Assembly (NCBI GenBank): GCA_003576805.1
Contig: QEVM01000003.1
Location: 1,016 to 65,015 of the forward strand
Reading direction: 5' to 3'
Source: Pseudomonadota bacterium
GTDB lineage: Bacteria; Myxococcota_A; UBA9160; PR03
Length of the DNA stretch: 64,000 nt
In this document: positions 51,744 through 54,447 of the stretch, piece after piece
Position numbering within the stretch: position 1 is the stretch's first letter
How the letters are laid out: each line of letters opens with the position of its first letter
The notes under the pieces: model-generated
What the model was told of the DNA's origin: nothing
Database searches by the model: none
The model's input: the letters and a program-made list of their open reading frames with translations, nothing else
Translations under genes and position numbers: made by a program

Positions 51744-52169
51744 GTGCGCCGGATCCCCGTCTTCGTCGCCATCCTCGCGCTGCTCGCGGCCGCCGCGCCC
51801 GCCGCCCGCGCCATCTTCTCGTCGCCGATCCACGCGGGCTGCTACATCGCGGCGCCGGGCGACTGCCGGATCCGCGTCGATCCGTTCACCGTGAACGTCG
51901 CGTCGGGCGAGAAGCTGGTGCGCCTCCAGCTCACGGCGGCGCGCGTCGGCGCCGGCTCCAGCGTGGTCTACGACTGGCGCCCCGACGTCTCGAACCCCGT
52001 GCCGTCGGGCGGCGCCAGCACGTACGCGCCGGCGATCCCGAGCCTCGACGTCGCGGCGGCGTGCGGCGAGGCGTACGTGCTCTCGCTCCAGGGCCAGGAC
52101 ACCGGCGACGCGAACCTGCTGAACGCGGGCCAGACCGAAGCGTTCACGTGTCCGAGCGCCGTTCCGTGA
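51744..52169 (+). CDS. Small secreted 4-Cys protein (paralog A, no sorting tag)
   Basis: Signal peptide [23 protein letters not shown]. Aligns along its length with the next gene (CY.A..G.CR...DPF...VYD...NP...Y.P..P...A.C.E.YVL...QD.GDA...T.A..CP). Confidence 0.6.
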
Positions 52170-52654
52170 CGCGCCGCGCGCGCGCGCTCGTGTGGGCGGC
52201 CGCTTGCGCCTCGCTCGCGACGGGCGCCGCGGAGGCGTTCGTCAGCGCGAGCCCGATCGCCGCCGCGTGCTACGCGGCGGAGCGCGGCTGCCGCGTGCAG
52301 CTCGATCCGTTCGCGCTCGAGGTCCCGCTCGGGCGCCGCCTCGCGCACGTCTCGATCGAGCTGGACGGGCAGCCCGTCTACGACTTCTCGACGGACGCGA
52401 GCAACCCGCCCGCCGGCGCCTACGTGCCGACCTTGCCGGCGCGCGGCTTCGCGGCGCGCTGCGAGGAAAGCTACGTGCTGACGGTGCGCGCGCAGGACGA
52501 CGGCGACGCGGTCGCGTCCGTGGCGGCGCAGACCGACGCGATTCCGTGTCCCGTGCGCGTTCCGGAGCCCGAAGCGAGCCTCGCGGCGGGCGCTGCGCTC
52601 GGCGTGCTGCTGGCTCGTCGCCGACGCAGGACTCGGTCTATCCTGCGCGCATGA
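52166..52654 (+). CDS. Small secreted 4-Cys protein (paralog B) with PEP-CTERM tag
   Basis: GTG 52166 overlaps the paralog A stop (GTGA). Tail '[24 protein letters not shown]' at 52559-52651. Its stop overlaps the BVMO start (ATGA). Confidence 0.65.
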
Positions 52655-54447
52655 GCAGCCCCAGCGATCTCGATTTCGATCCCGACGCGCTGCGCGCGAA
52701 GTACCGCGCGGAGCGCGACAAGCGCCTGCGCGCCGACGGCAACGACCAGTACCACGAAGTGAAAGGTGAGCTGGCCCACTTCGTCGACGACCCCTACGTC
52801 GAGCCGGGCTTCACGCGCGCGCCGCTCACGGACGAGGTGGACGTCGTCATCGTCGGCGGCGGCTTCGGCGGGCTGCTCGCGGGCGCGCGGCTGCGCGAGG
52901 CGGGCGTCGAGACGATCCGCATCGTCGAAAAGGGCGGCGACTTCGGCGGCACCTGGTACTGGAACCGCTATCCCGGCGCGCAGTGCGACGTCGAGTCGTA
53001 CATCTATCTGCCGCTGCTCGAGGAGCTCGGGTACGTCCCGACCGAGAAGTACGCGCGGGCGCCGGAGATCCTGGCGCACAGCCGCGCGATCGGGCGTCAC
53101 TACGACCTCTACCGCGACGCCTGCTTCCAGACCGAGGCGACCGAGCTGCGCTGGGACGCGGACGCAGCGCGCTGGATCGTCTCGACGAGCCGCGGCGACC
53201 GCATGCGCGCGCGCTTCGTCGTCAACTCGAACGGCCCGCTGAACCGCCCGAAGCTGCCCGGCATCCCGGGCATCGAACGCTTCCGCGGCCACTCCTTCCA
53301 CACGAGCCGTTGGGACTACGCGTACACCGGCGGCGACTCGAACGGCGGTCTCACCCGGCTCGCCGACAAGCGCGTCGCGATCATCGGGACCGGCGCCACC
53401 GCGGTGCAGTGCGTCCCGCACCTCGGCGCGGCGGCGGCGCACCTCTACGTGTTCCAGCGCACGCCGTCGTCGATCGACGTGCGCGCGAACCGCCCGACCG
53501 ATCCCGCGTGGGCGCAGAGCCTGCAACCGGGCTGGCACGCGCACCGCATGGACAACTTCAACGTGCTGGTGTCGGGCGGCTACCAGCCCGAGGACCTCGT
53601 CGCGGACGGCTGGACCGACATCATCCGCAAGCTGCTCGTGATGGTGCAGCAGGAGCCCGGCTCGATCGCGACGCCGGACGGCATCCAGAAGACGATGGAG
53701 CTCGCGGACTTCCAGAAGATGGAGCAGATCCGCGCGCGCGTGGACGAGATCGTGGAAGACCCGGCGACCGCGGCGGCGCTCAAGCCCTGGTACCGCCAGT
53801 TCTGCAAGCGGCCCTGCTTCCACGACGAGTATCTGCAGACCTTCAACCGCCCGAACGTGACGCTGGTCGACACGAAGGGGGAGGGCGTCACGCGCATCAC
53901 CGAGAAGGGCGTCGTGTACGGCGGCGTGGAGTACGAGGTCGACTGCATCGTGTACGCGACCGGCTTCGAGGTCGGCACCGGCTACACGCGCCGCTCGGGC
54001 TGCGAGCTCTACGGGAAGGGCGGCCTCTCGCTCGCCGAGAAGTGGTCGCGCGGCGTGCGCACGCTGCACGGCATGCACGTCCACGGCTTCCCGAACGCCT
54101 TCATCATGGGCAACCAGCAGAGCGGCTTCACGGTGAACTACCCGCACATGCTGAGCGAGCAGAGCCAACACATCGCGCACATCGTGAAGCACGCGCTCGA
54201 GCGCGGCGCGAAGACGGTCGAGGTGACGGCCGAGGCCGAGGCCGAGTGGGTGGACACGATCGTGCGCATGGCGCGCCTCGGACAGCAGTTCCTCGAGGAG
54301 TGCACGCCCGGCTACTACAACAACGAGGGCAAGCCGAACGAGCGCAGCGCGCAGGACGGCTTCTTCGGCGGCGGCTCGCCCGCGTTCTTCCAGATCCTGC
54401 GCGACTGGCGCGCCAAGGGCGATCTCGCGGGGCTCGCGCTGGCCTGA
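52651..54447 (+). CDS. Type I Baeyer-Villiger monooxygenase (flavin/NADPH-dependent)
   Basis: '[11 protein letters not shown]' FAD GxGxxG, BVMO fingerprint '[11 protein letters not shown]', second '[10 protein letters not shown]' NADPH GxGxxG, '[14 protein letters not shown]'. Confidence 0.9.

Follow-up and report, generated by a model that had tools for sequence, protein, structure and literature searches.

Ordered pairs of four-cysteine paralogues, one tailless and one tailed, and a Baeyer–Villiger monooxygenase gene that adjoins one of them

In the NCBIfam 'choice-of-anchor' families, one extracytoplasmic domain is combined with interchangeable C-terminal anchoring signals across lineages. 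In chaplins, which exist in short secreted and long sortase-anchored forms, and in curli, with CsgA and CsgB, the anchored or cell-associated paralogue is thought to tether or nucleate the unanchored one; both chaplins and curli are small amyloid-forming units. This article examines a locus with a comparable contrast between two paralogues: tandem genes A and B, which encode small four-cysteine proteins, followed by gene C, which encodes a Baeyer–Villiger monooxygenase (BVMO). The three genes lie in a stretch of 64,000 nucleotides (nt) of contig QEVM01000003.1, here called the window, which has a GC content of 72% and comes from a metagenome-assembled genome (MAG) labelled 'Proteobacteria bacterium' (locus tags DCC71_00910 and DCC71_00915). 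Protein B ends in a signal of the PEP-CTERM type, which is defined by a near-invariant Pro-Glu-Pro, a hydrophobic helix and about five basic residues at the C-terminus (Haft et al. 2006, PMC1569441).

Genes A and B make up a conserved two-gene unit that stands by itself. This emerges from two groups of loci: six independent contexts from metagenomes (L001, L004, L007, L008, L014 and L017), and 33 genome loci with 8-kb flanks. The MAGs of the latter bear the labels of at least three phyla, namely Chloroflexota (Anaerolineae, Chloroflexia, Promineifilum), Acidobacteriota (Thermoanaerobaculia) and Proteobacteria (delta- or other). Scanning with a hidden Markov model (HMM) of the family finds two tandem copies on the same strand in 30 of the 33 genome loci and in all six metagenome loci. 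Both copies are intact in 27 of these 30 tandem genome loci; in the other three, the first gene is broken in two (L035), terminates prematurely (L042) or contains a stretch of N (L048). The loci without a tandem pair, three in number, contain a lone tailed copy (L024), a fragmentary one (L049) and one that lies at the edge of its contig (L050).

In every pair, the untailed gene (gene 1; A in the window) comes first and the tailed one (gene 2; B in the window) second; the order never varies. In most loci the two genes are separated by −4 to about +36 nt; a few ambiguous starts give values outside this range. Eight pairs were assigned a 4-nt overlap, among them all four with a PEP-CTERM tail; the start of gene 2 overlaps the stop of gene 1 by 4 nt in L001 and L017, and by 1 nt in L014 if the called start is used. 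Nearly all intact copies of gene 1 end in CPxxxP followed directly by the stop codon, an exception being L046, with CPSEVS. Distance analysis places the nearest relative within the same copy type in 62 of 68 cases, and the two types are thus maintained lineages rather than repeated recent duplicates. When the open reading frames (ORFs) surrounding the pair were clustered across about 40 loci, no recurrent partner was found, whether exosortase, sortase, usher, glycosyltransferase or copper gene; the commonest neighbours are generic ABC ATPases and two-component regulators, in at most seven loci each. The contrast between a tagged and an untagged paralogue, which an earlier note on this DNA had pointed out, is conserved: gene 1 is tailless and gene 2 extended in 30 of the 33 genome loci and in every metagenome locus. 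The arrangement is far more general than one genome shows.

Gene 2 extends beyond the shared domain in every locus, and most of its tails fall into recognisable, lineage-specific classes. The PEP-CTERM tail of the window recurs in L001 (as a VPES variant), L014 and L017. In about 23 loci, mostly labelled Chloroflexota, gene 2 closes with a short [YF]LPx[VIL]xx[RK] ending, and in L025, L043 and L046 the same LP motif follows a Thr/Pro-rich linker. In the loci from Thermoanaerobaculia (L021, L022, L034 and L038), gene 2 has an extra domain of about 125 residues that ends in DVNGYFE. L040 and P0057 have a pair of dockerin-like repeats in this place (in P0057 with an NF041540 match, E 1e-4), L033 and L050 have an FxDGFE ending, and the tails of L023 and L035 are degenerate and belong to no class. 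Where a class can be recognised, the tail is of a type that serves anchoring or docking.

Two of these tails deserve separate description. The extra domain of the Thermoanaerobaculia loci follows the pattern CRxIDTR…NVTVT…DVNGYFE (L021 8417-9226, L034 480-1283, the L038 ORF ending at 9310, and P0034), and Pfam and NCBIfam searches returned no match to it. The [YF]LPx[VIL]xx[RK]-COOH ending closes gene 2 copies, for example L004 8486-8974, at the place where the proteobacterial copies have PEP-CTERM. It is also present on unrelated ORFs of the same loci, namely L020 3836-5770(−), L023 1-1485(+), L036 11580-13514(−) and, in L024, 155-670(+), 860-1261(+) and 5430-6044(+). These six non-family ORFs compare with 0.72 expected by chance (Poisson P ~1e-4). 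Several of the proteins concerned look secreted or surface-located, with signal-like N-termini and a beta-helix-like 'DIGAVE' end. None of the NCBIfam models matches the LP ending, and a literature search found no description of a C-terminal sorting signal from Chloroflexi. The ending may be an undescribed sorting or docking signal; it points to a possible new C-terminal signal in Chloroflexota.

The features of the locus in the window are collected in Table 1. The GTGA and ATGA overlaps by which the earlier note had chained the three genes are both present, as read from the sequence. GC3 (GC content at third codon positions) is 0.96 for gene A, 0.91 for gene B and 0.96 for the BVMO gene, so that all three behave as real genes in a 72% GC genome. 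The start codon of gene B is backed by homologues starting with MTRRAR or MTTRAR. A gene for a 374-residue protein without family match (50561-51685) ends 58 nt before gene A, and the run from A to C may be co-transcribed with it. A promoter and terminator scan of 50300-55300 gave nothing usable and is neutral on a separate BVMO promoter or a terminator after the BVMO gene.

Table 1. Coordinates of the features of the A–B–C locus in the window.
Feature	Position	Strand	Basis and remarks
Shine-Dalgarno GAAGGAGG, 5 nt before the GTG start of gene A	51731..51738	+	Read from sequence
Gene A (pair gene 1), 141 residues; predicted exported four-Cys Fn3/Ig-like protein, anchorless, ends CPSAVP-stop	51744..52169	+	ORF, GTG start; GenBank RIL08044.1
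Putative Sec signal peptide of A, 23 residues, ARA cleavage motif	51744..51812	+	Translation, judged by eye
Gene B (pair gene 2), 162 residues; predicted exported paralogue with PEP-CTERM tail	52166..52654	+	GTG start; GenBank RIL08045.1
GTGA overlap, gene B start / gene A stop	52166..52169	+	Read from sequence
PEP-CTERM signal of B, residues 132-162: VPEP, 14 hydrophobic residues, RRRRR, TRSILRA	52559..52651	+	TIGR02595 match
ATGA overlap, BVMO start / gene B stop	52651..52654	+	Read from sequence; junction specific to this genome
Gene C, type I BVMO, 598 residues, cytoplasmic	52651..54447	+	ATG start; GenBank RIL08046.1

The proteins A and B share 40% identity over their whole mature length (BLASTP, E 5e-25). 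A profile built from both collects 22 close homologues, all unnamed and without Pfam domains. Alignment of the 22 sequences gives 19 invariant columns, among them four cysteines (C33, C41, C107 and C136 in the numbering of A) that are kept in 22 of 22 members, and two conserved loops, YDFRPDxSNP and QDTGD. In an exhaustive HMM search of 1.84 billion cluster representatives, the family comprises 109 clusters (50% identity) at E<1e-3 and 90 at E<1e-10. Pfam matched a domain in none of the 22 members at E≤1, NCBIfam has no match to the passenger domain and recognises only the tail of B, and a sequence-profile search of the PDB returned chance-level matches only, the best being coronavirus receptor-binding domains (E 0.016). 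Longer family members carry the domain at the N-terminus, followed by stretches with sub-threshold Ig or Fn3 similarity; judged from sequence, this architecture is weakly consistent with surface proteins.

Both A and B start with signal-peptide-like N-termini, as judged by eye. A twin-arginine translocation (Tat) signal was considered for B in view of its TRRAR start and rejected, as the twin arginine is not kept in homologues. The identity of the two proteins, the cysteines common to all members and the lack of Pfam, NCBIfam or PDB matches agree with the earlier note, which had described them as exported four-Cys paralogues of an unrecognised family. Its worry that such small ORFs might lack homologues or coding signal is dispelled by the 109 clusters and by ratios of nonsynonymous to synonymous substitution (dN/dS) of 0.28-0.45 between the window genes and their closest relatives, values that are not near 1 and that are probably too high, since synonymous change is constrained at such extreme GC3. 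Neither the family nor its paired architecture appears to have been described.

AlphaFold2 (AF2) predicts an all-beta sandwich for A, with an N-terminal helix at residues 6-15 (confidence score pLDDT 85.5), and the same sandwich for B, with a C-terminal helix at residues 135-161 (pLDDT 87.8); the latter helix corresponds to the membrane segment of the PEP-CTERM signal. In Foldseek searches against the PDB, the models match generic Fn3 domains (Ihog, CbhA), CARDB domains and Ig-like domains of glycosidases, with a best E-value of 8e-3 and none below 1e-3; TM-scores reach at most about 0.5 with normalisation to the query and about 0.6 with normalisation to small targets. The predicted fold class of A and B is thus a generic Fn3/Ig-like beta-sandwich, in which no specific family can be named. 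Judged from their spacing, the four cysteines would form two disulfides, C33–C41 and C107–C136, that staple the fold; C33 and C41 would lie on adjacent strands of a hairpin, and a C107–C136 bond would tie down the C-terminus. Chaperone-usher and spore-coat-U (SCPU) pilins were considered as relatives and rejected, with no SCPU or pilin match in Pfam and no recurrent chaperone or usher neighbour.

The tail of B fits the three-part PEP-CTERM signal, with VPEP at residues 132-135, the hydrophobic stretch, the arginine cluster and seven further residues to the stop. It scores 17.2 bits on TIGR02595 (cut-off 16) and 13.6 bits on Pfam PF07589, below the cut-off of 20.7. That only the second paralogue is tagged, as the earlier note had claimed, holds: gene A stops after CPSAVP. 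By pattern matching, four ORFs of the window have C-termini that resemble PEP-CTERM (16680-18869, 37478-38917, 52166-52654, which is gene B, and 55151-56989), which suggests that this genome uses the tag generally. The three others comprise one beta-propeller (SBBP), one PD40-repeat protein and one 612-residue Cys-rich protein with a weak CBM_4_9 match. The last of these (55151-56989) runs about 40 residues beyond its RRRR cluster and overlaps the start of a LuxR-type response regulator gene (56916-57560) by 74 nt. PEP-CTERM proteins do not usually show such an overrun; a stop codon may have been lost here, or a frameshift may have occurred.

Type I BVMOs reportedly carry the fingerprint FxGxxxHxxxW[P/D], flanked by two GxGxxG Rossmann motifs, a pattern attributed to Fraaije et al. 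2002. The translation of gene C contains the fingerprint and two Rossmann motifs, and has no signal peptide. It aligns over its full length to NF045818 (PtlE-like) with 880 bits, below the cut-off of 1100, and thus belongs to the same broad family without being an equivalog of the pentalenolactone D synthase PtlE; several FAD/NAD(P) Pfam domains, including FMO-like and Pyr_redox_3, match as well. At least 7999 homologues are found at E<1e-100, the best with about 80% identity and with labels that include Myxococcota, Binatia and Limnocylindria.

The earlier note had taken the exported pair and this enzyme to be co-translated, and had asked whether such pairs recur beside BVMO genes. A tblastn search with the BVMO across the loci matches only L011-L013, which belong to the same organism (contigs with 100% identity, from sequencing runs whose accession numbers are adjacent); in none of the roughly 39 other loci is a BVMO found within 8 kb of the pair. 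Two BVMO orthologues with 81–82% identity, on long contigs, stand alone among unrelated neighbours and without small four-Cys genes. The closest pairs, in which the A copies are about 65–70% identical, lie between a GGDEF gene and a convergent alpha/beta-hydrolase gene, or before another convergent gene. The linkage is thus confined to this organism, an outcome that the earlier note had itself named as refuting, and a functional unit with the BVMO is not upheld. Of the co-translation proposed for the three genes, the ATGA overlap stands, with co-transcription and possibly coupled translation, in this genome only. At sequence level, the overlap indicates co-transcription here, nothing more, and the BVMO is best read as an unrelated, co-oriented cytoplasmic neighbour, placed in the transcription unit by gene packing in this lineage only. 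This removes the tempting but wrong inference of a cytoplasmic BVMO working with exported proteins.

Directly upstream of gene A lies a cluster (42136-51685) whose genes are mostly on the other strand, divergent from the A operon; it was not found beside the pair in other genomes. It encodes a thiamine diphosphate (ThDP) enzyme, a cytochrome P450, an AurF-like di-iron oxygenase, a small carrier protein, a stand-alone DltA-like adenylation enzyme, a FAD monooxygenase, a polysaccharide deacetylase and the 374-residue protein mentioned above, and could modify a small molecule or polysaccharide. A canonical exosortase-A exopolysaccharide (EPS) locus was considered here and rejected: on TIGR03098, which has a cut-off of 592 bits, the adenylation enzyme reaches only 238, and the deacetylase does not match the deacetylase subfamily of PEP-CTERM loci. 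Just downstream of the BVMO gene, an ORF of 125 residues (54579-54956) has a signal-like N-terminus and a Pro/Gly/Asp-rich middle, and neither Pfam nor NCBIfam gives a match. Elsewhere, the pair lies beside genes for a hemerythrin with DUF1858 and a multicopper oxidase (L008 45-2274), for a ferredoxin, a hybrid cluster protein and a flavoprotein (L007 9319-13163), and for CopC/CopD (L001 1882-3960). In the clustering of neighbours, these copper- and nitrosative-stress-related genes do not recur across loci.

The most probable reading, held with a little more confidence than doubt, is that A and B act together as a two-subunit surface module in which tagged B tethers untagged A. B would be handled by an exosortase and end up on the cell surface or in the exopolysaccharide matrix, as expected from what is known of PEP-CTERM proteins (PMC1569441). 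A would be made in step with B through the 4-nt overlap; having no anchor and a nearly fixed free C-terminus (CPxxxP-COOH), it would be held at the surface by binding B. The assembly could be a pseudo-symmetric A–B heterodimer, or A could be a bulk subunit anchored or nucleated by B. A structural or adhesive role, in matrix or floc, is speculative. The fixed order, the tight junction, the near-constant end of gene 1, the anchoring-type tails of gene 2, the separate lineages, the low dN/dS and the lack of any other recurrent neighbour speak for the tethered module. A stronger version, which is tentative and on balance doubted, holds that A and B are an obligate heteromer across several phyla with a lineage-swapped anchor, and that the LP ending is an undescribed sorting or docking signal with its own processing partner.

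This account of tethering has several observations against it. Both monomers are modelled by AF2 as complete, confident sandwiches, neither visibly needing a partner, and a natural A–B fusion was seen in none of the 109 representatives. The fold matches are generic only and give no functional lead. No exosortase gene was found among the window ORFs scanned. Mean A–B identity is 57% within a locus and 50% between loci, which hints at some gene conversion or repeated duplication and would blur a single ancient split. Both copies keep YDFRPDxSNP and QDTGD and, to judge from these shared loops, could work independently on the same ligand.

This last point leads to the alternative that A and B are two separate forms of one binding module: A would be released and diffuse off, B would remain bound to the cell, and the two would not touch each other. 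It is a less likely, if serious, contender: it would account for two copies with the same loops and cysteine pattern, for two monomers that are predicted as complete folds, and for the conserved contrast between tagged and untagged forms, but redundant copies are not expected to keep a fixed order, a tight junction and co-retention in 30 of 33 genome loci. Nor has an intact locus with gene 1 alone been seen, and the fixed stop of gene 1, CPxxxP-COOH, suggests that the C-terminus itself is constrained. If the two proteins do meet, they might do so in a fibre or layer built on the chaplin and curli principle, with anchored B nucleating or tethering a polymer mostly of A. The Ig-like fold, the anchored/unanchored logic shared with short and sortase-anchored long chaplins and with CsgA and CsgB, and the long Thr/Pro stalks by which some gene 2 copies would project the domain from the cell are in keeping with such a polymer. 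It is improbable all the same, as chaperone, usher, sortase and secretion genes are not recurrent beside the pair, no missing or donor strand is apparent in the AF2 models, and the tight coupling suggests near-equal amounts rather than an excess of A; the Foldseek match to the archaeal pilin 6w8u is weak (TM 0.33, root-mean-square deviation 9.7) and perhaps partly due to the signal-peptide helix.

Two further explanations would assign the pair a chemical task, and both are very unlikely. In one, the three genes are a functional unit in which A and B bind, carry or sense a small molecule produced or altered by the BVMO; the shared transcription unit implied by the ATGA overlap and the oxidative and acyl-modifying enzymes encoded upstream (P450, AurF-like oxygenase, FAD monooxygenase, adenylation enzyme and carrier protein) would suit it. 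It is close to refuted by the roughly 39 other loci without a BVMO within 8 kb, the different neighbours of the closest pairs, the stand-alone orthologues examined, and the disparity between at least 7999 BVMO matches and 109 small-protein clusters. In the other, the four cysteines hold a metal, for instance copper, or make up a redox centre, and the pair is a periplasmic metal or redox protein. CopC/CopD in L001, the multicopper oxidase and hemerythrin in L008-L010 and the hybrid cluster protein in L007 are neighbours that would fit, but such neighbours are not recurrent across loci. There are no Cys-x-x-Cys or His-rich motifs, and the spacing of the cysteines and the predicted strands fit two structural disulfides, one within a hairpin (eight residues apart) and one at the C-terminus.

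The family lies outside current domain libraries and has so far been found only in uncultured bacteria; its sources include Microflora Danica and other environmental MAGs labelled Chloroflexota, Thermoanaerobaculia and Proteobacteria. An ordered pair of an untagged and a tagged protein, whose tag changes with the lineage, is a natural experiment on surface attachment across different envelopes.

Gene C resembles BVMOs of the cyclohexanone monooxygenase and PtlE-like kind in its fingerprint, Rossmann motifs and alignment to NF045818, and differs from PtlE in scoring below the equivalog cut-off; these comparisons mark it as a common enzyme of wide distribution, with no link to the small proteins anywhere else. 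B resembles PEP-CTERM cargo (TIGR02595, PMC1569441) in its signal peptide, PEP motif, 14-residue helix and five-Arg cluster, and in that the genome has several such proteins, four of them, B included, in the window. Its passenger domain, however, matches no described PEP-CTERM family, so that B is a member by its tail only. It also differs in being paired with an untagged paralogue, in lacking an adjacent exosortase or EPS locus, and in that the same domain bears other tails in other phyla.

With Fn3, Ig-like and CARDB domains, A and B share the predicted fold class (pLDDT 85-88) without a sequence match to the Ig and Fn3 families of Pfam; the four-Cys pattern and the YDFRPDxSNP and QDTGD loops are specific to the A/B family. 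The domain behaves like those of the 'choice-of-anchor' families, although none of those NCBIfam models recognises it, and here the variable anchor sits on a single member of a fixed gene pair, the other never being anchored. With chaplins and curli, A and B have the logic of an anchored and an unanchored paralogue in common, but no relationship in sequence or fold. The A/B gene pair is one-to-one and tightly coupled.

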